64,000 nt of DNA from Spironucleus salmonicida (Eukaryota), in contig NC_090603.1 in the NCBI RefSeq assembly GCF_000497125.1, forward strand, positions 434,001 through 498,000, written 5' to 3'. Below the pieces are notes generated by a model. That model searched no databases. It worked only from the letters and a program-made list of their open reading frames with translations, and was not told where the DNA came from. Of the stretch, positions 455 through 44,783 are shown piece after piece; positions within the stretch are counted from its first letter, which is position 1; the number at the start of each line of letters is the position of its first letter. The position numbers and the translations under genes are program-made.

Positions 455-1396
455 TTGAATTGTGGAAGGGAGTGCGCCAAAATAGAATATATGAATATAA
501 CTATATAATAATCGTAATATAGGTAAAATATATATAAAAACATAAATAAGTAAGAAATATAAATGTGACTGTCCTACTAAGTTGGCTCAGATGAAAATGT
601 TGTAAAACATAAACTTTAAAATCATATGTAATGTATTTACATAGCATAATTGATATGATTACTCTAATAAAATTATAAAAATTATTAACGGAATTGCTAG
701 AGTAAAATTTAATTTATTACCACATTATAATATGTTAAAGAAAAAATATCTTAATAATGATATTAGTTTATCTAGGTTAATGGATAAATAATTCTGATTC
801 GCTATAATTTAACTGAAGTTTTGGTGTTGCTTTTTCCAGCGCAATCCTATTTGGATCATTAAGTGGCAAAACTCACACAGTACATCAAATTAAGCTCAAA
901 CTACGGAAAGAAGGCTAGCAGGCCAAACTTCCCCTTTTTGCCAGTTCGCTAGCGCAGACTAATCTCTTGCGCTGCAACACGTTAAGAGCAGACCCACTCC
1001 GAACCTAGAATTCGCTCTAGCTGCTTCCCTATCTGCAGTGATCTGGAAGGCGCATCCACTTAGATCTCCTCTCTGCGCGGCACGGTGGTTCTGGCTGGAG
1101 TTCGGCAGTATTTTAGTACTGCTTCGCAGCGCACATTCAAGATGAGTCAAGCGAGCAGCCCGCATTGGGCCATCTTTGACGCTAAACTGCCGCTGTCGGT
1201 TTCCGCAGTCCCGCCGGCCTCGCATCCAGCACCATACCGTCCGGCTCGAAGCCGCTAGCCTCGTCGCGGTTATGAAGCCGAATACAATAAGATGCCTATC
1301 TAGCAAAAACAAAATTGTATACTTTCTAGCTGGAGTATACTCCCCTTAATAGTAGCCTATGCGGCCGCTGCTGCAAATCGAGGCGCCCCTCCACAA

Positions 1397-1825
1397 ATGA
1401 GCATGAAGCAGGCCATGATCCTGGAGTTCAACTTCTACAACAGCAGGAACGCGCTCATCTCCTACACCGCAAAGGCCGGCACCCCGGAGCTGACCCCGAT
1501 CGTCATCTTCAACGACGACGCCAGCACCCTGTACTTCAACTTCTCCACCAAGTCCCGCCACTACGCGGAGATCGCGAGCGCCGTGCACAAGCGCATCACG
1601 GTGGGCAACATCTACACCAACCGGCGCTCCACCTTCCAGTACGAGCTGGAGCTGCTGGATAGCAAGGCGCACGAGGACCTCTACGACCTCTGCTGGAGGG
1701 AGGAGGTCTTCGAGATGTTCGACGAGGACGAGTTCCGCGCCGACAGGGTGGTGTTCAGGATCGTCATCAAGTCCGCCCAGTTCATCGACGAGGACGACCA
1801 GATCCTGGAGGAAGTGAAGTTCTGA
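1397..1825 (+). CDS. Pyridoxamine 5'-phosphate oxidase-like FMN-binding split-barrel protein (142 aa)
   Basis: ATG-TGA ORF with strong GC3 bias. Motif TLYFNFSTKSRHYAEIAS and size fit the PNPOx/general-stress split-barrel fold. Confidence 0.6.
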   Translation: MSMKQAMILEFNFYNSRNALISYTAKAGTPELTPIVIFNDDASTLYFNFSTKSRHYAEIASAVHKRITVGNIYTNRRSTFQYELELLDSKAHEDLYDLCWREEVFEMFDEDEFRADRVVFRIVIKSAQFIDEDDQILEEVKF

Positions 1826-1828
1826 TTC

Positions 1829-2281
1829 TCACTCGCCGAGCCGCGTCTACTGGTTCTCCAGCTCCAGGATCTTGAAGAAGTCCAGCTCCGACAGCGAGAC
1901 GATGCACTGCTTGATGTTGTAGACCTGGCTGCTCTGCTTGATCTCCGCCACGGTGATCACCCGCTTGAGGTAGCGGACGAAGCGCACCACCAGCGCCTCC
2001 TTGGACGCGGACACCACCTCGCACAGGCACACCGCCCCGGCGTAGTGGGCGGGCTGCGTGTGGACCACCAGGCAGGTGTCGCCCCGCTTCATCTTCAGCG
2101 AGATCTGGCGGTCGGACGGCTTGGAGAGGAAGTCGATCTGGACCGCGTTCTGCTCCTTGGTCAGGCGCTCGATCTTCTGGGCCGAGAGGCGGTTGGCGTG
2201 CGTCTTGATGACGTAGAAGACCTGGTTGCACTGGTTCAGGATGATGTCCGTGTGCTGGGCCTGGTGGTCCATGTTTAGCAT
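1829..2281 (-). CDS. EVE (PUA-like, Thy28/THYN1-type) domain protein (150 aa)
   Basis: FYVIKT...MKRGDTCLVVHT...GAVCLCEVV...VRFVRYLKRVITVAEIK...IVSLSELDFFKIL matches EVE motifs. One in-frame TAG corresponds to CAG in the other arm. Confidence 0.7.
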
Positions 2282-2322
2282 TTTGGGAGCGGGAGTGAGT
2301 ATATATAATAGCAGCAAAGTCC

Positions 2323-3810
2323 TCAGTGCGCCTTTCTGCGGCTGGTGCGCTTGCGGTTCTTCATGGCCACGACAGCCTGGACGATGCCATGGATGGCGAA
2401 CGCCGTGCAGCACGCGACCCACGATGCCCCCACCGCCACTGCGGCTATCAACCCGTAGTTCACCGGCTGTGCCTTCACGTCGTCCAGGAACAGGAGGTAC
2501 GTGGCGCCATCCAGCACCATCGACAGGCCGTATCGGGCCGTATCGAAGAAGCCGTCGTAGCCAGTGAAGGAGACCTGCGTGGCCGAGCTGTCGCCGCTCG
2601 CCGTAATCGCAACCTTGTTGTGGTTTATAAGCGAGAACTCGGCCGGTCCGGCGCTGCACTTCCCGTTGAGGTACAGGGTCAGGTCGATGACGTTTTTCCT
2701 CCTGACCGCCGTCACCTTGGTCCAGCAGGTCGGGACCATCTGGGGGGTCTGCTTGTACATGGCCTTGAGCGTCTGGTCTGAGCCCACCGAGATGATGTCC
2801 AGGACGACGCGGTCGAACTGCTGGGAGAGCACGATGGCGCTGCAGATCGGGCGCAGCTTGATGATCTGGCTCGCGCAGGTAATCTGAAGCACCTGGTTGT
2901 TGACGAGCGGCGCGTTGTGGCTGCTGAGGAAGGAGTGCTGGGTGCCGTTCACGATGAAGGAGAGCTTGAAGGTCGTGTGGTCTCCCAATTTACTCGTGTA
3001 GTCATCATACTTATCCTAGTCAAACTGGAGCCTGAGATAAATGTCGTCGTTCTGGAGCGACATGAGGGCTACCTGGAAGAAGGCCACTACGGTCTCCAGG
3101 CGCGTAGACTCCACGTCGACCTGGAACTCGACCTTGGAGCCCACCTGGCTGGTCGTGAAGACGATGAAGGTGTTGAGGAACGGCTGCTGCTGCACGAACT
3201 CGAGCAGGTCATCCTTGAACATTATCTCCTGCTTCGCAACCATGTAGTCGAACCCCATATTCAGGTCCAGCTCCACCAAGGCGCCGCTGAGGCTCAGCTG
3301 GACCGCTTGCAGGAAGTTGTCGGGGCTAGCAGTCTTGAGCTACATCTGCGTCTTGCAGAGGCCAGTCGGAAAGAGCTCCACCTCGATCCGGTCCCGGAAG
3401 ACCTGGGCAACGGACCGCGGCTCGTAGCACGCCTGCAGGTTGGACTTCTGGAGCGAGAACTTGGGGATCAGCGTGGTGAGCACCTGCCCGAAGGTGTAGA
3501 TGTCGAGCTGCGCTGAGTACACCAGGCCAATCTTTTGGCCAGTCGGGAGCGCGGCGGCAAAGGTGATGTTGGTGATGTTCTGGTAGGAAAAGGAGGACAG
3601 CGTGGTGGTCACAATGGGGATCTTGATGCCCTCCAGGCTGTTGATCGTGAGGTTAACCTGGACCCCAGGCGGCATCTTGCCGCAGGCTTCCACGTTAAGG
3701 GGCTTCAGCTGAACCACCAGCTGGTTTATGTTTTCATCATAAATGATTAGTGAATTTTCATCAAAGCAGTTATCTAGAACTTGTTGAAATATTTAAAGTA
3801 CAATCAGCAT
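2323..3810 (-). CDS. Type I membrane/surface protein 'P' (495 aa), intact copy
   Basis: ATG 3810 MLIVLQIFQQVLDNCFDENS... joins three same-frame standard ORFs through TAG codons. C-terminal TM segment (LIAAVAVGASWVACCTAFAIHGIV) and basic tail. Confidence 0.85.
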
Positions 3811-4512
3811 TTTAATGAAAATTTGTTTTATTATATAATATACGATTAAGGAAAAATAATAAATCTATAATATTTATAAATAAAAATATATGAAAGAAAT
3901 TGATCTATGCTACAATTGATATGAAATATAACAAAATATATGCCATTAGAATTAGAATTTTAGAGAATCAGTTTTAAAATTTAGAACAAATAAATGTAAA
4001 TTGATATATTATAGCACATTATAAACTTCTAGTATCAGTTAATGGTTTACGAAATATAAATTCAGTTAAGATAATGAGATGAAATATTCATCATTCATAA
4101 AGTAAATGTATAGTGTATTATTTAAATGCTTATCGTATATTCAGATATTTTACTTTGTAAAAACGATGGTTCCAAATATCTAAATTTAGATTTATGCTAG
4201 ATTTTATTGTAAATAGAAACTAAATGAGCACATAAAAGTTAATTATATAAAATATTAATACTGTAATACGAAAAACTAAAATAAAAAATATATTTAGTTT
4301 TTGGTTAGGATGAATATATGAAATAGCTTCTTATTCTCATATAAATAAAATTTACGGTTTACCTTACTACATATTGCTTTTAATAAAACTTAATATTTTG
4401 AATACGTAATAAATCTTAATATAGAAATTAATCAAGTAAAAACTAATATATTCAGTTTATTAGTAGTTTAAAAATAAATATTGCATCACCTATTATCCGG
4501 TATTTTGCGAAA

Positions 4513-6072
4513 ATGATAAGTTTAGTTCTAGCGCTGACCTGCTTCGAGCAGACCGCCCAGGTGGTAGGGCAGGAGCAGCAGTCCACGGTCTAGCTGCTGC
4601 TGACGCCGCTGGAGTCCGCCCACGACCTCTGTAAGGCCTCCTCCGGTACCGAGTCGACCGCCCTCATTAAGTTTAACGCAAAACAAGTCGAGGCGACGTT
4701 CACCTACCAGGACGACAAGGCCATAGTAATCCCCTTCGACCTTTCTTCAGATACAGGAAACTTCAAGGAGATGTTCAATACCGACGTGATATCCTACCAG
4801 ATCAAGCTGGCTGGCTCGCTCAACGTCAACGGCTCCGTGCAGAAGGTGAACCTGGTCCGCCTCAACACCTCCGCCTGCTGGGACGACCTGAAGCTGGTGT
4901 ACTCCCGCACCGCTGGGGGCGAGTTCATCCAGATGACCGGCACCCCGCTCCTCTGCACGATCAGCACGCCCGCCATCACCTTCCGGTTCGTCTCGGGCGG
5001 CCGGCAGCGGTAGCTAGCTATCTCGGGAAGCACCGGAGGCGCAGAGTATTACAAGAAAGGGAGCGCCTTCGACTACAGCAAGATCAAGTTCTACAAGCAG
5101 GAGCTCTCCACTCTGACCGACGAGGCCGACAAGCAGACCATGCGCGACTTTTTCGACGAATTCGAGCAGAACCGCGACCTCCGGGTTCAGTTCGTCCTCA
5201 CCACCTCCGACTACCCCGTCCGCGCCATCATTGACGTCATAGAGAGCCAGAACACCGCCTGCATCACAAACTTGAAACCCCGGGTCTATATCGACTCACG
5301 CTACGTGAACATCGAGTTGGAGAACAAAAAGTACGCGGGGGAGTCGGAATGCGTCTCGAACGCGGTCTACTTCAGGCACCACGCGATAATTCGCTCAAAC
5401 AAAGGCACGTTCCATGCGGTCGTTTTCGAGCAGAATGTCACCGATTTCATCGCCCGCGGGGGCGTGGACATGCCGTTCGACCCCCTGATCCCGGATTTCC
5501 AGCAGATTTAGGAGGCGGAGGTGCGGTACTATCTGACATCGTACGACGAGAGCGGGAACATATTGCTCGAGACCAGCCACAGGGGCCCGATGTCGCTCAG
5601 CTGCATCGATTACTTCGCGGCCAGCGTCCGGTAGCAGCAGGGTGGCTGCGTCGCAGTGAGCTTTTACGGCACCGAGTCGTGCCTGGCGAGGACGGTCCAG
5701 GAAATGGACATTATTTTCGCGTCCTAAATCGACGGGTTCACTTCTAGGGTCACCTATTTTTCGTTTAAGCTCTCATTTACGCCGTCAACCACTATAACGG
5801 AGCTGTGCAGTGGGGAAAATACCAATATAATATACGGCACAGATGCCCCAGAAACCACGTTCTACCAGCGCCTGAAGGCGTACTCGCGGCTGATTCAGCG
5901 GGGACAGTAGCTCTACGTGGCGTTTTCCGGGGAGCAGGAGTTCTTCAACTGGGACCGCTGCAACCTGGACGTGAGCGACGCGCTCCTCTACCCGATTGTG
6001 GGGTCCTGCGTGCTCATCGCCATCCTGGTCGCGCTGATGACGGTGTGGCAGTCGCGGCAGCTGATTCAATGA
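4513..6072 (+). CDS. Type I membrane/surface protein 'Q', variant L (519 aa)
   Basis: MISLVLALTCFEQTAQ... short signal peptide, spaced Cys, C-terminal TM (LLYPIVGSCVLIAILVALMTVW). Continuous in code 6. Confidence 0.88.
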
Positions 6073-6117
6073 GGCTCAGAGTGATGTTTTGCGCACTTCC
6101 CGGAATTTCCGCTCACT

Positions 6118-6771
6118 TCAGGGCCGCATCCCGTAGACCGCGAAGTCCTACCTCGCGCCGCTTTCCGTCTCCTCCAGCACCAGGAGGTTGCACATCCGCA
6201 CTCGGTCCGCCCGGAGGCCGAGGCAGGCGCCCGCGAGCTTGGCGTCGAGGTCGCGGCGCCACTCTGCGTCCGGCTCTCCGAATATATCGTTGCTGCTCGC
6301 AGCCTGCACCAGGAACTCGCAGCCAAAGCGGAGCTGCAGCCGCCCCCCGTCGCGCTGGGCGCCTTGCATCAAGAGCAGGGCCTGGCCGGCGTCCGTATCG
6401 CACAGCAGCTGCACCACGCGCATCTCCGCGGGGAAGTCGTCTAGCAGCACCGCGGGCCCGCCGGTAAAGGACAGCTGGGCGCGGCGCTGGGGGACCCTCG
6501 TGGCGCTGACGGTGTGGCTGGCCCCTGCCGCCGTGAGGGTTATGGCGGCACCAGCATCCAGGGCATCGAGGCACTGCCGGGACGTCTCTGGGCCGAGGTC
6601 GCCAAGGCAGAGGTAGGCCGGGGAGGCGAGATGGCCCAGGGCCTGTGCGTGCTCCCCGCCGACGGAGACTGCGAAGCGAGGCCTCATAGCGTCCAGCTCA
6701 TCGGACTGGAGCAGCTGCAGCCGGTGGCCCTGGAGCTCCGCGGCTACCAGCATGAGCACCCCGAGTAGCAT
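6118..6771 (-). CDS. Hypothetical protein with predicted signal peptide (217 aa)
   Basis: MLLGVLMLVAAELQGHRL...GAR-TAG-DFAVYGMRP-TGA. ATG preceded by AAA; AGTGA directly follows the stop. Confidence 0.7.
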
Positions 6772-6936
6772 TTTGGAAGGAAGTGGTGTTGTGCGTGTCT
6801 GGGGAGAGCACAGCGCGTACTGCCTCCACTCCAGCAGTTCAGCCCAGGGGTGCCTGTAGTGTGAATCAGGCTCACTCCTACGAAACCCCCGGGCCCAGGC
6901 CCAACCAGCGGCACCTCCCCGCATCGCGGTCGGCAC

Positions 6937-8781
6937 TCACTGGAAGCGCGCAGCGTAGTGCCCCACCACCCGGTCTGACAGCTCGCGCACCACGCCGAGG
7001 GACCCGGTGCGGGAGATGGCGTCCACCGCCGCGCCGTCCACAGGCCGGTCGAACACGCCGAGCATCTGCCCGAAGACGCCCAGGTTTGCCGCGGCCTGCA
7101 GCTCCGGGTCCGCGGTGCGCACGGGCACCCCGGTGTTGGGCTGCACCGCGCGGTTGAGGGCAAAGGGGCCCGCGGAGAAGAGGCGCTGCACCTCGTCGCG
7201 GGCGTAGAAGCCCACCACACGCTCACACTGGAGCAGGGTGAAGGGCAGGTGGTGCTGGGCCTCCAGGGCGGCGAGGCGCGCGCACACCCCATTGGCCGCG
7301 AGCTGCATGGCCACGGCGCGGTACACCACGAAGAGGCGCGAGGGGACGCCCAGCTCAGCGGCGAGGGCCTCCTCTTCTGGGGACAGCACCGCGCCCGGAA
7401 TCGCGTGCGGGGCGTCGATGGCCCCATAGGTGCGCTCCCCGATGCCCCGCACAAGGTCTGCCAGCTCGTGGCTGCGGCCCGCCCGGTCCGTGATCTTCTT
7501 CGCGTAGTGGCTTTGCAGCCCGAGGCGCATGATCTCGGCCTTGATGAAGGTGTCCGCCGCCTCGTCGATGAATGGGTTATACACGTACAGCCCGCAGTGG
7601 GCCACATACTGCCGCACCGGGAAGAGGTCCGGGAGCGTGGCCGCCACCAGCTCCGCCTCGGCCCGGGAGAACCGGCGGGCGGAGTGCAAGCGCGTGTTCT
7701 GCGCGTTAAGGCGCCCGACCTCATAGTTTGCGACATTCACGGCGGCCTTGGAGCAAACCAGGGCCTGCCTGCCCAGACGGAGCGCGAAGGAGGCCACCGG
7801 CGCCAGCGCCTTCGGGGCGAGCACCCGGCCCGCACGCTAGGCCTGCAGCACCTGCCGCGTCGGGAGGCTTGCGAACTTGACATTGCGGAAGACGAAGCGC
7901 TGGCGCAGCGGGACCGTCTAGGGCGGGAGCGCATCGGCGACTAGGTCCGTCGCGGAGTAGTCCATGACGTCGGGGAGGTCGTTGAAGAAGGCCGCGTCGA
8001 GGAAGTACAGGAAGCTAACCACTCCCACGCCGTCCATGGTTAGCATTCGGTGGGTCTCAGGCCCGCGGGGCTTACGCGCCAGGACGGTGCGCGGCACCCA
8101 CTGATCGAAGGAGGCGGGGGAGCGCATGACGTGCAGCAGCATTGATGCGCCGGTGACCTCACGGACCACGGTTCGCGCCTTGTTCGCGTCCAGGGCGTCC
8201 GGCTGCGCGCGATTGCGGAGTCTGTTGCGCTGCACCGCATTCACGCCGGCGTCCGCAAAGGGGGCGGTGACCAAGAGGCGATCCGGGGCAGACCCTAGCT
8301 GCTGGAGCACTGGCGAGAAGGGGTCCTCTGCGCCCAGCTCGACCTCGAGGAAGGGAAACCGCGATGCGATTTGGGCCACCACGTCCCGCAAGAACGCCGG
8401 CATCTGCGCGGAGAGAGTGAAGCGGCGCAGCACAGGCACCTAGGCTAAGAGTGCGGTGTGGTGCCCCAGGAAGGTCGCCAGTGGCGCCGCCAGCAGGACA
8501 TCGAGCGCGGCGTTGGCGGGCCCCAGCCGCCCAAGCAGCAGCCGGTAGAATCGCAGTCCGAAGCGCTAGGTGCCAAAGACCTCCAGCGGCAGGAGCGGGA
8601 GAGTGCGCTGGTCCTCAGGCGCACCGATGCCCAGGAAGTGCTGAGAGCGCGCCGCGTAGAGAGAGGCGATGGCGGCGGCCTGCTCCGGCGTGCAGGGCAG
8701 GGAGGACAGCTCGGACGCTGCCAGCAGGGACAGCTGGGCGCGGAAGTGCTCTGCAGTGGGGAACCCGGTGAGGAGTACCAT
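6937..8781 (-). CDS. 614-aa protein with Ada2-like C-terminal half (SWIRM-like)
   Basis: Three standard ORFs joined through TAGs from ATG 8781 (MVLLTGFPT). RRFSRAEAELV...DTFIKAEIMRLGL...IPGAVLSPEEEALAAELGVPSRLFVVYRAV...CERVVGFY resembles the Ada2 C-terminus. Confidence 0.55.
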
Positions 8782-8875
8782 TTGGAGCGGAGGGTCGGAA
8801 GGGAGGCGTACTGGGCCGCGGGCGAGTGGGACGCCCTGGCCGCTCCAATTGGGGTTCCGCCCAGACCCGCTCCGA

Positions 8876-9120
8876 ATGTAGCAGCGCACCGCCCTAATAG
8901 TTTGCGCCGCCGTCCTGGCCGTTCTTCTGGCTGCCCGCCACTACGTCGCGCGGTACCTTCAGCACGCCACGCGCAGTGCGCCACCGCAACTCCAGCGCCT
9001 GGCCCGGGAGCACCCGACTGCGTCCCTGAGGGCACCGTGTTCGACCTCGCGCACCTGGATCGCCTCCGCCCTCGGGTCCTCCAGCAGTTCCGCGCCAGCG
9101 TCCACGCCAAGGAGGAGTGA
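8876..9120 (+). pseudogene. Frameshifted copy of the 81-aa membrane-anchored protein (or a sequencing error)
   Basis: GAGCACCCGAC here versus GAGCACCCCGAC in the right arm: 1-nt deletion at about 9013. Confidence 0.6.
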
Positions 9121-9499
9121 ATTACATTATTACATTGAGCTAGCTTTTTGATAATAGTTGTAAAACTAGAAAACTATTAAAATAATCTCAGTAAAATAAC
9201 ATTTCATAAAGCAATAACTCTTAATCCAAAAAAAACCAATTGCTAATAAATAAATTATGAGCATAAAGGTTATCTCTGTTAGTTGAATGACTGCTATATT
9301 ATCTTTGAGTCTTAAATATCACATAAATCAAATATAGTTTACTGATATAATAAACTGATGATGGCCGAGAAATGAAATTATTTATTCACGCTGTCTTTTA
9401 ACACATCTTAATATTAGTAAATACTTATTTTATAATTCAAAAAATAAACTTATAATTAACTAAATAATAATAAAATATTTTCTCTCCAAAATTTCTAAA

Positions 9500-11218
9500 A
9501 TGTAGGATGATACTACAACAATTAAATAACTTTAACTATAGCTTTAATCACAACAGTAGCAGCTCCGTATTTCCCATTAATAAGCAGAATAATTATAACG
9601 TCTTTAATAAGCTATCATCCGTATGTTTTTAGAATTTAGAGATCGTGCAGCTGACGAATTATCAAACGTTCCAGCAGAAACTTAGGATTAACTATTAACA
9701 GAGCAACCTCTAGTTATTTTGGATAAGTTACGCGCGTAATTAAGAATTCTTTTATCGTTTAAGGATGATTTTGAAAATCAGCTTAAAATTAAAACAACAG
9801 TTCATGATTCATCATAATAGTCCACTAAGAAAGATGTTTAATAACGCTTGATAGAATCTTAAGATAAAATATTCCAACTAAAGTAAGAGCTTTCGAAAGC
9901 AAAATCAGATATTAATAACTTTGAGTAAGAAAAAGATTAATTGTTATATAATAATAACTAATAATTTCAAGATTTAAAGTAAAAGCTTACATTCATTGAG
10001 AAATCAAAGGCATAATTGGAAGATTAACTTCTAGAAAGAGATTAAAGAATCAAAAAATATAACCTTTTAATGAAAAATTAAGATCTAAAGCTAGCTAGAA
10101 TCAGTGAATTAGAGGCTAAACTTCAATAAAAAGAAACTGAGTTCCAATCTAGGATTGCAAAAGTTTAAACTTTAGATAGAAACGAAATCATTCGTCTTTA
10201 GCGGGAAATTGGAAACTTTAAAAAAATTCAAAGTGAAAACACAAAATTGAAGTCAATGCTAAAGGACTATGAAACATAGATTTCAAGTTTTAAAAACAAC
10301 ATTAAAATGGTCAAATTTGACGAATTAAATCATGAAAATTATGCTCTAAACACTCAAATTTAAGCACTGTTAACTGAAGTTCAAACGGTAAATTAGAACT
10401 ACAAATAAAGTGAAAATTCGAGAATTATCATGGAGTTGGAACTCAAAAATGCTAAGTAACAATTATAATAAATTAAGTCAGATAATGATAAATTTTCTGG
10501 TCTAAATAACATGAATTCTAGCATTATGAATAAATCTCAGACCTTGTAAAATAATTAAAATTAGTACTAACTTTCAACGCCAAATATGAAAGGTACTAAG
10601 AAATAAAATAATAATATTTTGGCTTAGTATGAACTTTAGACTGCTCTAGATAAGCTGAAAGAGCGCGATCGTGAAATCGAAGAACTCGCAAAACGGGTAC
10701 GAAAATTGCTCGCGTTGTAGCACAAATCTGCGTTATCTCAAAAGGCTTTTTAAGAGGAAAAACAATCACTTGAAAAATAAATTTAACAGCTTCGGGATGA
10801 GATTGCCCAACTACGAAAAATGCAGAATTTTGAAAAAATTTCGAATTAAAAAATAGGAAATTCAGACGAATTGCTGCGAGATGTTTAAAATTTACGTGCA
10901 TTTGCTATAACAGCTAGTAGTGTGTATAATAATGCGAATAATAAAAATTCTACTCTTTAAAATGGAAAAAATTAATAAGGTTAATAGTCATATAATAATG
11001 CGAATATAGGTAAAAATTAACAAAATTAATAAATTTACAGTGGTGGAATGGCTGCACTTGAGGATGTTGAGGATCCTAGAGAGTTTTTGAGATAGAGAGG
11101 TAGTAGTGCTAAGCTTACACCAGGGCGTGGAGGAGGTTATGGTAGTGGTCAGATGTTAGCTGGTAACACAGGGGGAAATGGGAGAGGTCGGAGTGCTGTT
11201 CAGTTTGGATTGATGTGA
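9500..11218 (+). CDS. Coiled-coil protein (~572 aa), single-copy, in the palindrome spacer
   Basis: MQDDTTTIKQLQLQLQSQQQQL... many TAA/TAG Gln codons, heptad-like composition, Gly-rich tail ending FGLM-TGA in frame. Confidence 0.8.
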
Positions 11219-11308
11219 CAGAGAGTGAAGTTATTGTTAGTTTCTTATGGTTTTATAGGATATTTGATTGTTTTTGTGAAATAACTTCAGTTTCAGTGGA
11301 GTTAGAAC

Positions 11309-11554
11309 TCACTCCTCCTTGGCATGGACGCTGGCGCGGAACTGCTGGAGGACCCGAGGGCGGAGGCGATCCAGGTGCGCGAGGTCGAACACGGTGCCCT
11401 CAGGGACGCAGTCGGGGTGCTCCCGGGCCAGGCGCTGGAGTTGCGGTGGCGCACTGCGCGTGGCGTGCTGAAGGTACCGCGCGACGTAGTGGCGGGCAGC
11501 CAGAAGAACGGCCAGGACGGCGGCGCAAACTATTAGGGCGGTGCGCTGCTACAT
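11309..11554 (-). CDS. Small N-terminally anchored membrane protein (81 aa), intact copy
   Basis: MQQRTALIVCAAVLAVLLAARHYV...REHPDCVPEGTVFDLAHLDRLRPRVLQQFRASVHAKEE, ending GAG-TGA. Confidence 0.7.
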
Positions 11555-11648
11555 TCGGAGCGGGTCTGGGCGGAACCCCAATTGGAGCGGCCAGGGCGTC
11601 CCACTCGCCCGCGGCCCAGTACGCCTCCCTTCCGACCCTCCGCTCCAA

Positions 11649-13493
11649 ATGGTACTCCTCACCGGGTTCCCCACTGCAGAGCACTTCCGCGCCCAGCTGT
11701 CCCTGCTGGCAGCGTCCGAGCTGTCCTCCCTGCCCTGCACGCCGGAGCAGGCCGCCGCCATCGCCTCTCTCTACGCGGCGCGCTCTCAGCACTTCCTGGG
11801 CATCGGCGCGCCTGAGGACCAGCGCACTCTCCCGCTCCTGCCGCTGGAGGTCTTTGGCACCTAGCGCTTCGGACTGCGATTCTACCGGCTGCTGCTTGGG
11901 CGGCTGGGGCCCGCCAACGCCGCGCTCGATGTCCTGCTGGCGGCGCCACTGGCGACCTTCCTGGGGCACCACACCGCACTCTTAGCCTAGGTGCCTGTGC
12001 TGCGCCGCTTCACTCTCTCCGCGCAGATGCCGGCGTTCTTGCGGGACGTGGTGGCCCAAATCGCATCGCGGTTTCCCTTCCTCGAGGTCGAGCTGGGCGC
12101 AGAGGACCCCTTCTCGCCAGTGCTCCAGCAGCTAGGGTCTGCCCCGGATCGCCTCTTGGTCACCGCCCCCTTTGCGGACGCCGGCGTGAATGCGGTGCAG
12201 CGCAACAGACTCCGCAATCGCGCGCAGCCGGACGCCCTGGACGCGAACAAGGCGCGAACCGTGGTCCGTGAGGTCACCGGCGCATCAATGCTGCTGCACG
12301 TCATGCGCTCCCCCGCCTCCTTCGATCAGTGGGTGCCGCGCACCGTCCTGGCGCGTAAGCCCCGCGGGCCTGAGACCCACCGAATGCTAACCATGGACGG
12401 CGTGGGAGTGGTTAGCTTCCTGTACTTCCTCGACGCGGCCTTCTTCAACGACCTCCCCGACGTCATGGACTACTCCGCGACGGACCTAGTCGCCGATGCG
12501 CTCCCGCCCTAGACGGTCCCGCTGCGCCAGCGCTTCGTCTTCCGCAATGTCAAGTTCGCAAGCCTCCCGACGCGGCAGGTGCTGCAGGCCTAGCGTGCGG
12601 GCCGGGTGCTCGCCCCGAAGGCGCTGGCGCCGGTGGCCTCCTTCGCGCTCCGTCTGGGCAGGCAGGCCCTGGTTTGCTCCAAGGCCGCCGTGAATGTCGC
12701 AAACTATGAGGTCGGGCGCCTTAACGCGCAGAACACGCGCTTGCACTCCGCCCGCCGGTTCTCCCGGGCCGAGGCGGAGCTGGTGGCGGCCACGCTCCCG
12801 GACCTCTTCCCGGTGCGGCAGTATGTGGCCCACTGCGGGCTGTACGTGTATAACCCATTCATCGACGAGGCGGCGGACACCTTCATCAAGGCCGAGATCA
12901 TGCGCCTCGGGCTGCAAAGCCACTACGCGAAGAAGATCACGGACCGGGCGGGCCGCAGCCACGAGCTGGCAGACCTTGTGCGGGGCATCGGGGAGCGCAC
13001 CTATGGGGCCATCGACGCCCCGCACGCGATTCCGGGCGCGGTGCTGTCCCCAGAAGAGGAGGCCCTCGCCGCTGAGCTGGGCGTCCCCTCGCGCCTCTTC
13101 GTGGTGTACCGCGCCGTGGCCATGCAGCTCGCGGCCAATGGGGTGTGCGCGCGCCTCGCCGCCCTGGAGGCCCAGCACCACCTGCCCTTCACCCTGCTCC
13201 AGTGTGAGCGTGTGGTGGGCTTCTACGCCCGCGACGAGGTGCAGCGCCTCTTCTCCGCGGGCCCCTTTGCCCTCAACCGCGCGGTGCAGCCCAACACCGG
13301 GGTGCCCGTGCGCACCGCGGACCCGGAGCTGCAGGCCGCGGCAAACCTGGGCGTCTTCGGGCAGATGCTCGGCGTGTTCGACCGGCCTGTGGACGGCGCG
13401 GCGGCGGACGCCATCTCCCGCACCGGGTCCCTCGGCGTGGTGCGCGAGCTGTCAGACCGGGTGGTGGGGCACTACGCTGCGCGCTTCCAGTGA
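11649..13493 (+). CDS. Ada2-like protein, right-arm copy
   Basis: Mirror of 6937-8781; one V/A difference seen. Confidence 0.55.
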
Positions 13494-13658
13494 GTGCCGA
13501 CCGCGATGCGGGGAGGTGCCGCTGGTTGGGCCTGGGCCCGGGGGTTTCGTAGGAGTGAGCCTGATTCACACTACAGGCACCCCTGGGCTGAACTGCTGGA
13601 GTGGAGGCAGTACGCGCTGTGCTCTCCCCAGACACGCACAACACCACTTCCTTCCAAA

Positions 13659-14312
13659 ATGCTACTCGGGGTGCTCATGCTGGTAGCCGCGGAGCTCCAG
13701 GGCCACCGGCTGCAGCTGCTCCAGTCCGATGAGCTGGACGCTATGAGGCCTCCCTTCGCAGTCTCCGTCGGCGGGGAGCACGCACAGGCCCTGGGCCATC
13801 TCGCCTCCCCGGCCTACCTCTGCCTTGGCGACCTCGGCCCAGAGACGTCCCGGCAGTGCCTCGATGCCCTGGATGCTGGTGCCGCCATAACCCTCACGGC
13901 GGCAGGGGCCAGCCACACCGTCAGCGCCACGAGGGTCCCCCAGCGCCGCGCCCAGCTGTCCTTTACCGGCGGGCCCGCGGTGCTGCTAGACGACTTCCCC
14001 GCGGAGATGCGCGTGGTGCAGCTGCTGTGCGATACGGACGCCGGCCAGGCCCTGCTCTTGATGCAAGGCGCCCAGCGCGACGGGGGGCGGCTGCAGCTCC
14101 GCTTTGGCTGCGAGTTCCTGGTGCAGGCTGCGAGCAGCAACGATATATTCGGAGAGCCGGACGCAGAGTGGCGCCGCGACCTCGACGCCAAGCTCGCGGG
14201 CGCCTGCCTCGGCCTCCGGGCGGACCGAGTGCGGATGTGCAACCTCCTGGTGCTGGAGGAGACGGAAAGCGGCGCGAGGTAGGACTTCGCGGTCTACGGG
14301 ATGCGGCCCTGA
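13659..14312 (+). CDS. Hypothetical signal-peptide protein, right-arm copy
   Basis: Mirror of 6118-6771; one R/P difference seen. Confidence 0.7.
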
Positions 14313-14357
14313 AGTGAGCGGAAATTCCGGGAAGTGCGCAAAACATCACTCTGAGCC

Positions 14358-15917
14358 TCATTGAATCAGCTGCCGCGACTGCCACACCGTCATCAGCGCG
14401 ACCAGGATGGCGATGAGCACGCAGGACCCCACAATCGGGTAGAGGAGCGCGTCGCTCACGTCCAGGTTGCAGCGGTCCCAGTTGAAGAACTCCTGCTCCC
14501 CGGAAAACGCCACGTAGAGCTACTGTCCCCGCTGAATCAGCCGCGAGTACGCCTTCAGGCGCTGGTAGAACGTAATAATAGAAGATTCTTAGCCATATAT
14601 TACGTTTGTTGTATCGGTGCTACATTTCTCTATAATAGCTCCGGACGGTATAAAGGATAGGTGAAATGAGAAATATGTAACTCTAGAAAGAAATCCATCT
14701 ACTTGAGAAGTAAACACTAAATCCATTTCTTGTATCCCACGGGATAGACACTATTCCGTAGCATAAAAATTCATAGCTACACATCCTCCATATATTTAAC
14801 TTACACGTGTTGTAAAATAGTCTATACAACTTAGTTATAATTAACCTCGATAACTTGTTTCTAACAATATTTCTCCATTTTAATCGTAGGCGGTTAAATA
14901 ATATCTTAACTCAGCATTGTCTATATCTTGAAATCCCGGTACTATTGGTTCAAATGGCATATCTACCCCACCACGAGCATTAAAGTCGTCATATGACTAT
15001 TTTAAAACTTCTGCATGGAAAACTCCATTATTTGTGTTAACGATAGCATGCTATCTAAAAGAAACCGCGTTATTTATGCATGTTGGTTCTGTTGAATATT
15101 TCTTATTATCAAGACCGATGTCTACATACCTAGATGTCAAAAATCCTGATGCTTTTAAATTAATCAAACATTATGTATTGTTGCTCTCTATGACGTCAAT
15201 GATGGCGCGGACGGGGTAGTCGGAGGTGGTGAGGACGAACTGAACCCGGAGGTCGCGGTTCTGCTCGAATTCGTCGAAAAAGTCGCGCATGGTCTGCTTG
15301 TCGGCCTCGTCGGTCAGAGTGGAGAGCTCCTGCTTGTAGAACTTGATCTTGCTGTAGTCGAAGGCGCTCCCTTTCTTGTAATACTCTGCGCCTCCGGTGC
15401 TTCCCGAGATAGCTAGCTACCGCTGCCGGCCGCCCGAGACGAACCGGAAGGTGATGGCGGGCGTGCTGATCGTGCAGAGGAGCGGGGTGCCGGTCATCTG
15501 GATGAACTCGCCCCCAGCGGTGCGGGAGTACACCAGCTTCAGGTCGTCCCAGCAGGCGGAGGTGTTGAGGCGGACCAGGTTCACCTTCTGCACGGAGCCG
15601 TTGACGTTGAGCGAGCCAGCCAGCTTGATCTGGTAGGATATCACGTCGGTATTGAACATCTCCTTGAAGTTTCCTGTATCTGAAGAAAGGTCGAAGGGGA
15701 TTACTATGGCCTTGTCGTCCTGGTAGGTGAACGTCGCCTCGACTTGTTTTGTGCTAAACTTAATGAAGGCGGTCGACTCGGTGCCGGAGGAGGCCTTACA
15801 GAGGTCGTGGGCGGACTCCAGCGGCGTCAGCAGCAGCTAGACCGTGGACTGCTGCTCCTGCCCTACCACCTGGGCGGTCTGCTCGAAGCAGGTCAGCGCT
15901 AGAACTAAACTTATCAT
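14358..15917 (-). CDS. Type I membrane/surface protein 'Q', variant R (519 aa)
   Basis: Same length as variant L with near-identical ends. Internal 14574-15182 is AT-rich and diverged but collinear and open (NNTQCLINLKASGFLTSRYVDIGLDNKKY...ARGGVDMPFEPIV). Confidence 0.88.
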
Positions 15918-16553
15918 TTTCTGATATATCTACGATATTTTAATTATTAAATATACTTAAGTTATAATAAGTAAAATCATATTTTATTACTGTTTATAGT
16001 ATTATTCTAAAACATAGTATACATTTTTCATAAACGGGTATATGAATATATTAATAATTATTAAACTACTTTAATAATATTATTTTTATTTATAGGATAT
16101 ATAAGATTTTATAATGAATTTTACAACTTTTCTCTAATATTATATTTATCTATTTGTATAACTCGTCTTTAGATTTAGTTGTATTCTAACTAATTCTATA
16201 GTTTTAAATGAAATAATAAAAGTTTATCTATTTATATGATAATAAATTTTGAGTATTAAAAATCTGAATATACTATACTTTCATATTAAATTTATTAAAA
16301 TTTGTATTAAATTTAAAAATAATGGAACACTTTATTGAAAACATGCAACTATTAGCAAATATATATAATTTTAACTATATTTATAAGAATGTACTTTAAT
16401 TATCGTATGTCAGATAATAAATAAATAAAAATATTAAAAAATAATTTATACAAATATTTTATAATATTATGTTTAGAATATTTGATAAGCATGGTAATCA
16501 ACTATTTTCATATTATTTATTATAATTTTTATATAAATATACTAATAATATTA

Positions 16554-18032
16554 ATGTTGATTGTCTTTCCAGTAGTTCTTGATAATTATTATGGTAAAAA
16601 TTGAATTACAGTGTATACTGAGTACATAAACCAGCTGGTGGTTCAGCTGAAGCCCCTTAACGTGGAAGCCTGCGGCAAGATGCCGCCTGGGGTCCAGGTG
16701 AACCTCACGATCAACAGCCTGGAGGGCATCAAGATCCCCATTGTGACCACCACGCTGTCCTCCTTTTCCTACCAGAACATCACCAACATCACCTTTGCCG
16801 CCGCGCTCCCGACTGGCCAAAAGATTGGCCTGGTGTACTCAGCGCAGCTCGACATCTACACCTTCGGGCAGGTGCTCACCACGCTGATCCCCAAGTTCTC
16901 GCTCCAGAAGTCCAACCTGCAGGCGTGCTACGAGCCGCGGTCCGTTGCCCAGGTCTTCCGGAACCGTATCGAGGTGGAGCTCTTTCCGACTGGCCTCTGC
17001 AAGACGCAGATGTAACTCAAGGCGGCCAGCCCCGACAACTTCCTGCAAGCGGTCCAGCTGAGCCTCAGCGGCGCCTTGGTGGAGCTGGACCTGAATATGG
17101 GGTTCGACTACATGGTTGCGAAGCAGGAGATAATGTTCAAGGATGACCTGCTCGAGTTCGTGCAGCAGCAGCCGTTCCTCAACGCCTTCATCGTCTTCAC
17201 GACCAGCCAGGTGGGCTCCAAGGTCGAGTTCCAGGTCGACGTGGAGTCTACGCGCCTGGAGACCGTAGTGGCCTTCTTCCAGGTAACCCTCATGTCACTC
17301 CAGAACGACGACATTTATCTCAGGCTCCAGTTTGACTAGGATAAGTATGATGACTACGAGAAGGTCTTGGGAGACCACACGACCTTCAAGCTCTCCTTCA
17401 TCGTGAACGGCACCCAGCACTCCTTCCTCAGCAGCCACAACGCGCCGCTCGTCAACAACCAGGTGCTGCAGATTACCTGCGCGAGCCAGATCATCAAGCT
17501 GCGCCCGATCTGCAGCGCCATCGTGCTCTCCCAGCAGTTCGACCGCGTCGTCCTGGACATCATCTCGGTGGGCCCAGACCAGACGCTCAAGTCCATGTAC
17601 AAGCAGATGCCCCAGATGGTCCCCACCTGCTGGACCAAGGTGACGGCGGTCAGGAGGAAAAACGTCATCGACCTGACCCTGTACCTCAACGGGAAGTGCA
17701 GCGCCGGACCGGCCGAGTTCTCGCTTATAAACCACAATGCAGCCGCGATTACGGCGAGCAGCGACAGCTCGGCCACGCAGGTCTCCTTCACTGGCTACGA
17801 CGGCTTCTTCGATACGGCCCGATACGGCCTGTCGATGGTGCTGGATGGCGCCACGTACCTCCTGTTCCTGGACGACGTGAAGGCACAGCCGGTGAACTAC
17901 GGGACGATAGCCGCAGTGGCGGTGGGGGCATCGTGGGTCGCGTGCTGCACGGCGTTCGCCATCTATGGCATCGTCCAGGCTGTCGTGGCCATGAAGAACC
18001 GCAAGCGCACCAGCCGCAGAAAGGCGCACTGA
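16554..18032 (+). pseudogene. Membrane protein 'P', right-arm copy with degenerate 5' end and in-frame TGA
   Basis: MLIVFPVVLDNYYGKN*ITVYTEYINQ versus MLIVLQIFQQVLDNCFDENSLIIYDENINQ. TGA at 16602-16604 aligns with TCA (Ser); the remainder is near-identical to the left copy. Confidence 0.7.
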
Positions 18033-18073
18033 GGACTTTGCTGCTATTATATATACTCACTCCCGCTCCCAAA

Positions 18074-18526
18074 ATGCTAAACATGGACCACCAGGCCCAG
18101 CACACGGACATCATCCTGAACCAGTGCAACCAGGTCTTCTACGTCATCAAGACGCACGCCAACCGCCTCTCGGCCCAGAAGATCGAGCGCCTGACCAAGG
18201 AGCAGAACGCGGTCCAGATCGACTTCCTCTCCAAGCCGTCCGACCGCCAGATCTCGCTGAAGATGAAGCGGGGCGACACCTGCCTGGTGGTCCACACGCA
18301 GCCCGCCCACTACGCCGGGGCGGTGTGCCTGTGCGAGGTGGTGTCCGCGTCCAAGGAGGCGCTGGTGGTGCGCTTCGTCCGCTACCTCAAGCGGGTGATC
18401 ACCGTGGCGGAGATCAAGCAGAGCAGCCAGGTCTACAACATCAAGCAGTGCATCGTCTCGCTGTCGGAGCTGGACTTCTTCAAGATCCTGGAGCTGGAGA
18501 ACCAGCAGACGCGGCTCGGCGAGTGA
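18074..18526 (+). CDS. EVE domain protein, right-arm copy
   Basis: Mirror of 1829-2281; ends ENQQTRLGE-TGA. Confidence 0.7.
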   Translation: MLNMDHQAQHTDIILNQCNQVFYVIKTHANRLSAQKIERLTKEQNAVQIDFLSKPSDRQISLKMKRGDTCLVVHTQPAHYAGAVCLCEVVSASKEALVVRFVRYLKRVITVAEIKQSSQVYNIKQCIVSLSELDFFKILELENQQTRLGE

Positions 18527-18529
18527 GAA

Positions 18530-18958
18530 TCAGAACTTCACTTCCTCCAGGATCTGGTCGTCCTCGTCGATGAACTGGGCGGTCTTGATGACGATCCTGA
18601 ACACCACCCTGTCGGCGCGGAACTCGTCCTCGTCGAACATCTCGAAGACCTCCTCCCTCCAGCAGAGGTCGTAGAGGGCCTCGTGCGCCTTGCTGTCCAG
18701 CAGCTCCAGCTCGTACTGGAAGGTGGAGCGCCGGTTGGTGTAGATGTTGCCCACCGTGATGCGCTTGTGCACGGCGCTCGCGATCTCCGCGTAGTGGCGG
18801 GACTTGGTGGAGAAGTTGAAGTACAGGGTGCTGGCGTCGTCGTTGAAGATGACGATCGGGGTCAGCTCCGGGGTGCCGGCCTTTGCGGTGTAGGAGATGA
18901 GCGCGTTCCTGCTGTTGTAGAAGTTGAACTCCAGGATCATGGCCTGCTTCATGCTCAT
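18530..18958 (-). CDS. PNPOx-like split-barrel protein, right-arm copy
   Basis: Mirror of 1397-1825 with two amino-acid differences (D/A, S/T). Confidence 0.6.
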   Translation of the reverse strand: MSMKQAMILEFNFYNSRNALISYTAKAGTPELTPIVIFNDDASTLYFNFSTKSRHYAEIASAVHKRITVGNIYTNRRSTFQYELELLDSKAHEALYDLCWREEVFEMFDEDEFRADRVVFRIVIKTAQFIDEDDQILEEVKF

Positions 18959-19888
18959 TTGTGGAGGGGCGCCTCGATTTGCAGCAGCGGCCGCATAGGC
19001 TACTATTAAGGGGAGTATACTCCAGCTAGAAAGTATACAATTTTGTTTTTGCTAGATAGGCATCTTATTGTATTCGGCTTCATAACCGCGACGAGGCTAG
19101 CGGCTTCGAGCCGGACGGTATGGTGCTGGATGCGAGGCCGGCGGGACTGCGGAAACCGACAGCGGCAGTTTAGCGTCAAAGATGGCCCAATGCGGGCTGC
19201 TCGCTTGACTCATCTTGAATGTGCGCTGCGAAGCAGTACTAAAATACTGCCGAACTCCAGCCAGAACCACCGTACCGCGCAGAGAGGAGATCTAAGTGGA
19301 TGCGCCTTCCAGATCACTGCAGATAGGGAAGCAGCTAGAGCGAATTCTAGGTTCGGAGTGGGCCTGCTGCTAAACGTGTTGCAGCGCAAGAGATTAGTCT
19401 GCGCTAGCGAACTGGCAAAAAGGGGAAGTTTGGCCTGCTAGCCTTCTTTCCGTAGTTTGACCTTAATTTGATGTACTGTGTGAGTTTTACCACTTAATGA
19501 TCCAAATAGGATTGCGCTGGAAAAAAAACAATATCTAACATGAATCCGCTGTAAATAAAAGTTAACAAAATCAAATTATGAAATAATTTACGCTTTGTTA
19601 TTACTTAAAGACAACTCAATTATAATATAATATAAATAATATAAACTTTATTCTAGTTTTACAAAAAATTTATCCTGATCGAAACTACTAAAAATTGAGG
19701 TTTACAATTTATTTAAGTTAAGAGCAAATGAATTCTCTGGATGCATAATGGATATGCAAAGTAAGATGCTTAAATTCTTGATTGATGATTGTTTATAGAC
19801 CAATTTTTACTTTATGAGTAAATGTTAAAGACAGAATAGAATGAACAATAATGATTACATTTTATAATTGAAATTTTAAAATAAACTC

Positions 19889-20545: not shown

Positions 20546-20762
20546 TCTGCGCTCCGAGACTTATCGCGATTCGGATATTGGGGCAGTCCCGAATACCTCA
20601 CTGTAGACGTTGCGAGCATCGCTCCCATTGCTCGTGCCGCTCCAGAATGACCACCGCGCCGGACTGCCTCCAGGTTCCCGGCTGCGGATACTGCGAGCCC
20701 GGCAACGCCCTCGCCTGCCAGGGCTGCCTCGCGCCCTTCGTCTTCCTTGACGGCGTATGCTA
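20002..20762. repeat. Direct repeat copy 1 (761 bp)
   Basis: Matches 33643-34403 at offset 13641 with about 3 substitutions seen. Confidence 0.95.
20647..20762 (+). pseudogene. 5' fragment of cysteine-rich membrane protein gene
   Basis: MTTAPDCLQVPGCGYC...FLDGVC, then homology to 34288-34737 stops; no TM region. Confidence 0.75.
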
Positions 20763-44713: not shown

Positions 44714-44783
44714 TATTTAAAGTGGGTTAAAATATATTATAATAATATGTTGTAAATAAGAATTAGCTGAAATAATAGACATT

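Follow-up and report, generated by a model that had tools for sequence, protein, structure and literature searches.

The window analysed here is a stretch of 64,000 nucleotides of the Spironucleus salmonicida genome. It contains two closely related genes, Q-L (4513-6072, plus strand) and Q-R (14358-15917, minus strand), that lie within an 18.7-kb palindrome. The arms of the palindrome (left, 831-9123; right, 11306-19525) contain the inverted repeats I1-I5 and were aligned with blastn. In three blocks their identity reaches 97.8-99.9%; it is interrupted by two islands, the promoter region and an internal cassette of Q. The outer block (831-3789, aligned with 19525-16566) is 97.8% identical and carries 64 differences, many of them clustered. 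The segment 4509-9123 aligns with 15921-11306 at 94.2%, the cassette included. The inner block (5857-9123, partner 11306-14573) has 6 differences in 3267 nt. It comprises the Q C-terminal coding region, a 268-aa ORF (6118-6924, minus strand) and a 614-aa ORF, P0003 (6937-8781, minus strand), which like its twin P0008 is an annotated protein. The arms are separated by an A+T-rich, single-copy centre (9124-11305) with a 572-aa coiled-coil-like ORF (9500-11218, plus strand). Elsewhere in the window there is a second GC-rich repeat of 761 nt (99.6% identical), and no tRNA genes were found in the window. An initial annotation of this DNA had missed the palindrome around the pair, as well as the opposite codon composition of the two cassettes described below.

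Each Q gene is preceded by an A+T-rich promoter island. The left island (3790-4508) lies between Q-L and gene A-L (2323-3810, minus strand), which is transcribed divergently from Q-L and encodes a 495-aa predicted membrane protein that exactly matches an annotated protein (P0040). The right island occupies 15922-16565, and gene A-R (16680-18032, plus strand) is annotated as 450 aa with an internal Met as its start. The two islands (80-89% A+T) cannot be aligned, giving 33-54 identities per 100 columns with gaps, and the upstream regions thus differ as first described. Homology between A-L and A-R is still recognisable past the conversion edge, with 20 differences in 3732-3785 and a length difference of three codons. 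The counterpart of the A-L signal sequence in the A-R region is old-diverged and has an in-frame TGA at 16602-16604.

Both Q genes are single open reading frames of 519 aa that end in TGA when read with NCBI table 6. This reading requires the diplomonad code, in which TAA and TAG specify Gln. Under table 11 there are 6 in-frame TAA/TAG codons in Q-L and 12 in Q-R, which rules out a bacterial reading of the ORFs. The exact sequences of both are already annotated as proteins on the same contig of 1,071,966 bp. BLASTP aligns them with 433 of 519 residues identical and no gaps. The identity is distributed very unevenly: 242/245 in residues 1-245 (mismatches at 51, 55 and 56), 120/203 (59%, ungapped) in the cassette at residues 246-448, and 71/71 in residues 449-519. 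The DNA of the two genes differs at 271 of 1560 positions. Four of these differences are in the shared N-terminal tract (4509-5247, plus strand, partner 15183-15921) at 4647, 4663, 4676 and 4678, and the other 267 fall inside 5248-5856 (609 nt, no gap). No difference is present over 4679-5247 or from 5857 to the stop. Identity begins 4 nt upstream of the ATG, and the inverted repeat that results (4509-5255 and 15175-15921) matches at 743 of 747 nt (99%). The description of an intact 519-aa pair with constant ends, a cassette of about 60% identity, no net indel and retained cysteines is therefore correct. All 12 cysteines, 6 of them within the cassette, occupy the same positions in Q-L and Q-R.

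The further claim that Q is a type I membrane protein is plausible given a hydrophobic N-terminus and one hydrophobic stretch at 485-518, which is matched by a helix at 488-518 in the structure model. In that model the ectodomain probably consists of four beta-sandwich domains, with the cassette mapping to the third and probably the fourth, the membrane-proximal ones. Fold searches with Q returned generic Ig/FN3-like beta-sandwich matches only (Foldseek TM at most 0.25 over the whole chain; best VIA Z 8.4, for a single domain). No Pfam family was assigned to Q-L, Q-R, gene A or P0003, and a search of a protein atlas for function reached no more than lead level (feature scores up to 0.76, structure TM no higher than 0.39). 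The many CXXC motifs and the conserved C-terminal pentapeptide after the transmembrane helix that were sought as marks of VSP or CRMP membership were not found in Q, which has 0 CXXC and the tail QSRQLIQ. A profile search with Q yielded 19 hits at E<=1e-3, and those looked up belonged to S. salmonicida or Hexamita inflata, except for two whose records name no organism. Full-length HMM similarity, the same length and a conserved Cys framework place Q-L and Q-R in a diplomonad family of type I membrane proteins of about 520 aa (SS50377_27933-like). C10, F11, C40, C122, C148, C364 and C390 are invariant in a 13-sequence alignment of the family. A comparison of gene A with the Q family profile showed no relation (hhalign probability 2%).

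The composition of the Q genes changes as abruptly as their identity. Along Q-R the third-codon GC content (GC3) runs from 0.85 to 0.22 to 0.92, each step coinciding with the limit of a putatively converted tract. The flanks, which are taken to be converted, have a GC3 of 0.84-0.92. Cassette R (14574-15182, minus strand), in which 9 in-frame TAA/TAG codons specify Gln, has 0.22, and cassette L (5248-5856, plus strand, codons 246-448), which is also unconverted, has 0.77; Q-L overall has 0.82. The unique genes of the window have a GC3 of 0.18-0.32, and in those neighbouring GC-rich blocks it climbs towards the blocks. GARP/FYMINK ratios in the Q family are 0.62-0.73 in four members of near-identical pairs and 0.34-0.50 in five singletons.

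The cassettes differ at 161 of 203 third positions. By the NG86 method there are 143 synonymous differences at 136.7 synonymous sites, which is saturated, and dN is 0.32; the N tract (735 nt) has one synonymous and three non-synonymous differences. As judged from these sequences, the split between the cassettes is ancient and not the product of fast protein evolution. The saturation of dS also makes dN/dS across the cassette unusable as a test of diversifying selection.

A third copy of the unit provides a scale. SS50377_27932, a paralog of gene A (58% identical to A-L and likewise 495 aa long), directly neighbours SS50377_27933, a Q paralog (56%), as judged by their locus tags and accessions, which indicates an old duplication of [A, Q] as a single block. 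Within the cassette SS50377_27933 is identical to Q-L at 117/203 and to Q-R at 127/203 positions, compared with 120/203 between Q-L and Q-R. A maximum-likelihood tree of the cassettes does not separate the three (supports 62-65). A clade of Q-L and Q-R is not rejected (p-AU 0.233), and the cassette split may thus somewhat postdate the split from SS50377_27933. The branch of cassette R is the shortest (0.16, compared with 0.48 for L), and with SS27053 as outgroup L has 24 unique changes and R has 10, R retaining more outgroup states. The initial annotation had proposed a search for further cassette donors. In protein searches 2 of 5793 near-length candidates passed and no additional relatives of the cassettes came up; among 28 shorter proteins examined as short or fragmentary donors of cassette R, none passed. 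The closest protein to cassette R is 63% identical within the cassette. No literature was found on the four paralog locus tags.

Sequencing runs were available as short-read contigs from one DNA run (X1) and from runs X5-X8, whose RNA status is only a guess. In X1 the depth is 11.2 for the contig of cassette R and 9.23 for the alternative bubble of 669 nt, compared with 18.4-21.1 in the arms and 12.9 in the centre; by the tool's own caveat, contig depth is not equivalent to copy number. These depths fit two copies of the arms and one copy of each cassette, so that each cassette looks single-copy and no extra identical donor is indicated. Contigs end at the cassette and island edges, and the only joint at which the strand changes (9200/11309, in X1) corresponds to the inner edge of the palindrome. 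The check on RNA that had been suggested found both cassettes in all three of the RNA-like runs X5, X6 and X8, which are from bulk cultures. Expression of both variants is indicated only as far as the guessed RNA status is right, and levels cannot be ranked from contigs. Q-L and Q-R both appear to be transcribed, and neither copy looks like a silent store. Contigs over the four N-tract SNPs have L-type letters in X5 and X6, and R-type letters only in X8, even though the L-cassette bubble is the deeper one in that run (63.5 vs 18.2). Two intergenic segments, 9200-9450 and 15977-16478, have no cover in X5, X6 or X8, which fits RNA libraries but proves nothing.

At this locus a unit of several genes was probably duplicated long ago in inverted orientation, with gene conversion later homogenising parts of the two copies. 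The duplicated unit would have comprised the divergently transcribed genes A and Q plus the downstream genes, and its inverted copies would now form the palindrome. Repeated conversion from arm to arm (concerted evolution) may then have produced the three near-identical blocks. Overwriting would always have spared the promoter island, along with the initial codons of gene A, and also the 609-nt cassette of Q, and both would keep the ancient divergence. Q-R would accordingly be a chimera with L-type, GC-rich ends around its own A+T-rich middle, and each Q gene would retain its own promoter. GC-biased repair may have a part in the GC richness of the arms, and the cassette may be protected from overwriting partly by selection that favours two different modules next to the membrane. 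The copies are inverted and near-identical over long tracts, and the duplication is older than the identity of the tracts, because the cassettes are saturated at synonymous sites with a dN of 0.32, compared with four differences in the N tract. A relic model would predict such an old-diverged start of A-L and A-R beyond the conversion edge. For S. salmonicida, published work suggests gene conversion in regions of surface-protein genes and gives average GC contents of 44.7% for duplicated regions and 30.7% elsewhere (PMC9509377). Our searches found no work on biased gene conversion in Spironucleus and nothing relevant on S. salmonicida palindromes. One feature argues against GC enrichment from arm-to-arm conversion alone: cassette L, which has no present partner and on that view would be expected to be as A+T-rich as cassette R, has a GC3 of 0.77, which favours either a regional cause or an imported cassette R.

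Under such an import, a GC-rich 8.3-kb arm was recently duplicated or fully homogenised with both arms L-type at first. The right copy would then have gained, through ectopic conversion by a divergent and now lost paralog, an A+T-rich stretch of 609 nt and, as a separate event, a different upstream region. This history is rather unlikely, although it accounts for the GC-rich cassette L as a single copy, for the genome-baseline composition of cassette R, and for the short branch and retained outgroup states of R. The rise of GC3 in unique genes towards the GC-rich blocks points the same way, as a long-resident patch might have drifted upwards. However, no donor was found, the nearest protein being so distant in the cassette and the shorter proteins yielding nothing, and cassette R has single-copy depth in X1. 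At least two separate imports would be needed, one of the cassette and one of the island with the start of gene A, both sparing the 747-nt tract between them, and the start of gene A in the right arm is homologous but old-diverged, like a relic. We infer that conversion, not import, produced the mosaic. An assembly or haplotype artefact, with allelic or strain-specific cassettes distributed by the assembler over two otherwise identical arms, is very improbable. The depths of the cassettes in X1 are about half those of the arms, as in a 50:50 allelic mix, but one cassette per arm fits equally well. Allelic heterozygosity is reported as about 0.15% (PMC3916229), compared with 44% divergence of the cassettes. 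The published assembly is described as using long reads and optical maps, with read pile-ups checked at the two largest duplicated regions and not at this locus specifically (PMC9509377), and the distinct promoter islands are just 747 nt from the cassettes, easily spanned by any long read. A recent duplicate whose middle diverged fast under diversifying selection can be virtually dismissed. Q is a predicted surface protein with amino acid differences concentrated in two ectodomain modules, but the cassettes are saturated at synonymous sites and compositionally opposite, and selection on the protein cannot produce such a contrast with flanks that have 0-4 differences.

The initial annotation had raised an inversion or conversion switch. 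Its geometry is accurate: crossing over within the 747-nt tract would turn 5256-15174 around and place each cassette behind the other of the two different upstream regions. Any palindrome with internal heterology shares this geometry. A functional flip-flop, in which such crossovers swap ectodomain modules between two differently regulated promoters and generate clonal surface variation with no dedicated recombinase, is improbable. Besides the geometry, it draws on the upstream regions being unrelated from 4 nt before the ATG, S. salmonicida promoter elements being placed within about 60 bp of the ATG (PMC3916229). The R-type letters of X8 are a weak hint of reassortment, but they could equally well stem from conversion of 32 nt or from which variant the assembler chose. 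Both cassettes are found in the three RNA-like runs, so that neither copy looks silent. As first noted, no recombinase is visible: domain searches found no recombinase, integrase or transposase Pfam among 40 ORFs in 1-21,126 (8 + 32, with the near-identical right-arm twins of scanned left-arm ORFs omitted), the only hit being a sub-threshold EVE domain. Short specific inverted crossover sites were sought as well, and the repeats proved to be coding homology blocks of 747, 2959 and 3267 nt. S. salmonicida, a diplomonad, is also a eukaryote and not a bacterium. The arm homology adds up to 6973 nt, of which the 747-nt tract makes up only some 11%, so that most flips would miss the genes, and the variable part is the membrane-proximal and not the distal half of the ectodomain. 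Just as improbable, if not slightly more so, is a recombinase-free flip-flop that would re-deal the modules between promoters, with selection for a two-module system preserving the 609-nt island. Some of the flips would then redistribute the modules, as the tract between promoter and cassette is itself one of the three homology blocks, and this fish pathogen would possess a eukaryotic counterpart of a shufflon. Concerted evolution accounts for the whole pattern. The conversion part of the earlier proposal thus stands, as an evolutionary mosaic, while nothing points to a programmed switch, and a new switching mechanism is unsupported on present evidence. The locus looks like an ordinary case of concerted evolution whose compositional imprint is unusually sharp.

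It is common to regard diplomonads as effectively asexual, and the role of recombination in their genomes is poorly known. The Q locus can serve as a clean natural marker for gene conversion within a chromosome, with the third, unconverted [A, Q] unit as a yardstick. It offers a way to measure the length, direction and GC bias of conversion tracts in Spironucleus, and could show why the duplicated regions of S. salmonicida are GC-rich. For the biology of the parasite, a predicted surface protein is kept as two versions that differ only in two membrane-proximal domains.

Several known systems resemble the locus in part. The palindromes of the human Y chromosome have multi-gene arms that are kept near-identical by intrachromosomal conversion, and GC-biased conversion has been reported for them. 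Unlike these, the Spironucleus palindrome has a conversion-free island inside a gene, and its compositional contrast is far larger. In bacterial phase-variation loci and shufflons inverted repeats flank a segment whose inversion recombines constant and variable gene parts, and inversion between the repeats of the Q locus would do likewise. However, the bacterial loci rely on a dedicated site-specific recombinase that acts at short specific sites, and usually have one expressed copy, none of which is seen at the Q locus. There is also a likeness in form to the inverted VSP pairs of Giardia, described as diplomonad membrane-protein genes in head-to-head or tail-to-tail orientation (PMC2996952; G. 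muris genome paper, 10.1101/870949) and, by Adam et al. (2010), as near-identical up to abrupt points of divergence, with a few kb between the copies. Q itself, with 12 Cys, no CXXC and a different tail, is not a VSP. In comparison with the pairs as described there, the Spironucleus arms are 8.3 kb long with several genes, and the Q pair, unlike identical Giardia pairs, retains an internal island that diverged long ago and has opposite codon composition. The locus also agrees with the duplicated regions of S. salmonicida reported by Xu et al. (2022, PMC9509377), which are at least 2 kb long, at least 95% identical and GC-enriched. Those data, as presented, are genome-wide averages, to which the Q locus contributes the palindromic form and a GC3 step within a gene. 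On the sequence evidence, what is new here is this step in Q-R, together with the saturated synonymous sites of the cassettes and a distance between them as great as that to the third paralog, SS50377_27933.

The paired genes Q-L (4513-6072, forward strand) and Q-R (14358-15917, reverse strand) are closed under the bacterial code, with 6 and 12 in-frame TAA or TAG codons in the two frames. Both are open with NCBI table 6, in which TAA and TAG encode Gln and TGA is the sole stop. Exact matches to the two 519-aa proteins, and to the 614-aa protein encoded by a neighbouring GC-rich ORF, are deposited from one 1,071,966-bp contig, which also carries the paralog SS50377_27933. Other ORFs of the window include ordinary eukaryotic genes (SRP54, protein disulfide isomerase (PDI) and a protein kinase). 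These genes and the exact matches to deposited S. salmonicida proteins identify the window as part of the nuclear genome of this fish-parasitic diplomonad, rather than of a bacterium or a ciliate.

The initial annotation described the Q products as type I membrane proteins with constant ends, a variable middle that retains its cysteines, and differing upstream regions. This description was borne out. The products are identical at 433 of 519 positions with no gaps (242/245 in the shared N tract, 120/203 in the middle cassette and 71/71 in the shared C tract), and all 12 Cys are kept between them. A type I topology is consistent with the hydrophobic N-terminus and the lone hydrophobic helix predicted at the C-terminal end. 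The two genes differ at 271 nucleotides, of which 267 lie within the cassette (5248-5856 in Q-L, 14574-15182 in Q-R) and the remaining four at 4647-4678. Identity starts 4 nt 5' of the ATG, and the A+T-rich promoter islands upstream (3790-4508 and 15922-16565, about 80-89% A+T) do not align.

A profile search places Q in a diplomonad-specific family of ~520-aa membrane proteins, with members from both S. salmonicida and Hexamita inflata. The class features checked in the Q sequence do not make it a VSP or a CRMP. An AlphaFold model from a 13-sequence alignment (mean pLDDT 78, pTM 0.61) predicts several beta-sandwich domains in tandem, then a transmembrane helix, and its Foldseek and VIA-align matches are generic Ig/FN3-like only. 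Single-domain matches bound about 6-117, 118-244 and 247-363, with a further beta-rich stretch to about 433. With domains assigned from aligned ranges rather than inspected coordinates, the cassette (codons 246-448) probably begins at a domain boundary and spans the third and probably the fourth, membrane-proximal domains.

The Q pair lies within an 18.7-kb palindrome. The palindrome arms span 831-9123 and 11306-19525, on either side of a unique, A+T-rich centre (9124-11305). Each arm contains gene A, Q, a 268-aa ORF and a 614-aa ORF. Gene A encodes a 495-aa predicted membrane protein and is transcribed divergently from Q. Arm-to-arm homology falls into an outer block (831-3789; 97.8%, 64 differences, many in clusters), an N-tract block (4509-5255; 743 of 747 identical) and an inner block (5857-9123; 6 differences in 3267 nt). 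GC content is high in these blocks (55-74%), and the intervening islands and the centre are A+T-rich. The contig from the DNA sequencing run X1 has single-base indels relative to the window at 10220, 11414, 13533 and 14082; RNA-like contigs covering the last three match the window, and 11414 is the counterpart of the sole arm-to-arm indel (9012). The outer arm also contains a 150-aa ORF (1829-2281, reverse strand) with a sub-threshold match to the EVE domain (E 3.6e-4; 21 bits vs a cutoff of 23).

The new fact at this locus is a compositional step inside a single gene, Q-R. The shared N and C tracts have GC3 values of 0.84-0.85 and 0.92, respectively; cassette L has 0.77 but cassette R only 0.22. 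Third positions differ at 161 of 203 cassette codons, and L has G or C where R has A or T in 176 of the 267 cassette differences. Synonymous sites of the cassette are saturated (143 differences over 136.7 sites; dN 0.32), whereas the N tract has one synonymous and three non-synonymous differences, and the cassette divergence is thus old. Fast protein evolution after a recent duplication is ruled out by this saturation beside an N tract with only 4 differences. Over the cassette, Q-L is about as distant from Q-R (59% identity) as each is from the nearest paralog, SS50377_27933 (58% for Q-L, 63% for Q-R). The cassette ML tree leaves the branching of the three unresolved, and a Q-L plus Q-R grouping is not rejected (p-AU 0.233). 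The branch of Q-L is longer (0.48 vs 0.16 for Q-R), with 24 vs 10 unique changes relative to the outgroup.

SS50377_27933 directly adjoins SS50377_27932, a gene A paralog of equal length and 58% identity. The two form a third [A, Q] unit in which both genes are about equally diverged. The starts of gene A-L (2323-3810, reverse strand) and gene A-R (16680-18032, forward strand), just outside the outer conversion edge, are homologous yet old-diverged. The A-R start region (16566-16680, compare 3732-3810) has an in-frame TGA at 16602-16604, and its annotation begins at an internal Met, giving 450 aa with no signal-like N-terminus; the A-L N-terminus is conserved with SS50377_27932. In RNA-like contigs of X5, X6 and X8, the shared gene A body continues into the left-type start, with loose ends at 16624. 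Wherever the arms are non-identical, their divergence is of this same old paralogous kind, the signature of an ancient duplication homogenised patchwise.

Within gene A, outer-arm differences at 2611-2617, 2989-2997 and 3328-3340 are tight multi-nucleotide clusters altering 2-3 adjacent codons (for example TSK/EKV and KV/AA). Over codons 124-591 (P0004 numbering) the arms differ by 15 non-synonymous and 8 synonymous codons; the right copy matches SS50377_27932 at 4 differing sites and the left copy at 1. Among protein records from other S. salmonicida chromosomes, near-identical pairs have locus tags nine apart (SS50377_24132/24141 in the Q family, SS50377_27340/27349 in the gene A family), a hint that comparable duplications of several genes, or palindromes, occur there too.

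The best reading, which we consider probable though well short of secure, is concerted evolution of an old inverted duplicate. Gene conversion between the arms would have overwritten most of its coding sequence but spared the promoter island and the Q cassette, which would now be relics; Q-R would have become a chimera because its cassette escaped overwriting. Duplicated regions of S. salmonicida are described as GC-enriched (44.7% vs 30.7%), and gene conversion near surface-protein genes is suggested in the same source (PMC9509377). Within the Q family a GC-type amino-acid composition is found in the four members of near-identical pairs and is absent in five singletons. GC-biased conversion at the palindrome is a reasonable inference. 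The main loose end is cassette L, which is GC-rich though partnerless and so keeps alive an import alternative: both arms would once have had an L-type cassette, and an A+T-rich paralog, since lost, would have supplied the replacement on the right arm. We regard this as unlikely, as no donor was found in the protein sets searched or by X1 DNA depth, and at least two separate imports would be required.

Elsewhere in the window, a 761-nt direct repeat (20002-20762 and 33643-34403; 99.6% identical, 62-68% GC) is a second case in which duplicated sequence is GC-rich, and its copies are abruptly bounded by unrelated A+T-rich sequence. Across the final 150-250 codons of three long A+T-rich genes (20970-23132, reverse; 26439-33584, forward; 42509-44800, reverse), GC3 climbs from ~0.2 to 0.7-0.88, in each case at the end that adjoins a GC-rich block (either copy of the 761-nt repeat, or the PDI gene). 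This suggests that regional GC islands spill over into neighbouring genes.

Sequencing runs bear on copy number and expression. In X1 the 669-nt cassette R contig has a depth of 11.2, and an alternative bubble of the same length, sharing only its 30-nt ends and fitting cassette L, has 9.23, against 18.4-21.1 over the arms and 12.9 in the centre. Depth is not itself a copy number, and these values fit two arms with a single copy of each cassette. Runs X5, X6 and X8 are only guessed to be RNA; their arm depth is very uneven, unlike that of X1. Of the words sampled from 3900-6000, a stretch that is 71% coding, they contain 66-70%. Depths in X5, X6 and X8 are 13.1, 26.6 and 18.2 for cassette R and 32.2, 37.7 and 63.5 for the alternative bubble. 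It thus appears that bulk cultures transcribe both Q variants, although contig depths cannot rank their relative levels.

The initial annotation proposed an inversion or conversion switch. Its geometry stands, in that the cassettes would trade promoters after a crossover within the 747-nt tract, and one observation could be taken in its favour. At the four N-tract SNPs (15752-15783, equivalent to 4647-4678), contigs are solely left-type in X1, X5 and X6 and solely right-type in X8, despite an L-cassette bubble in X8 that is 3.5 times deeper than cassette R. This mismatch could reflect reassortment, a short conversion or merely the assembler's choice of variant. A programmed switch is disfavoured: the tract makes up some 11% of the homology between the arms, a recombinase domain was found in none of the 40 ORFs scanned, both copies seem expressed, each has its own promoter region, and the variable part of Q is membrane-proximal. 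Promoter elements of S. salmonicida are described as lying no more than about 60 bp from the ATG (PMC3916229). We consider a functional flip-flop very improbable.

The locus is filed as a palindromic gene pair whose concerted evolution has probably been patchy. Its notable features are the sharp intragenic GC3 step and the third [A, Q] unit, which dates the duplication. In the literature searched, supplements not covered, neither GC-biased conversion nor palindromes were found described for Spironucleus, and the SS50377 paralog locus tags were not found mentioned. Palindromes whose arms are held identical by conversion are known in other systems. In Giardia, surface-protein genes in inverted near-identical pairs with abrupt divergence points are well known, as described in PMC2996952 and 10.1101/870949.
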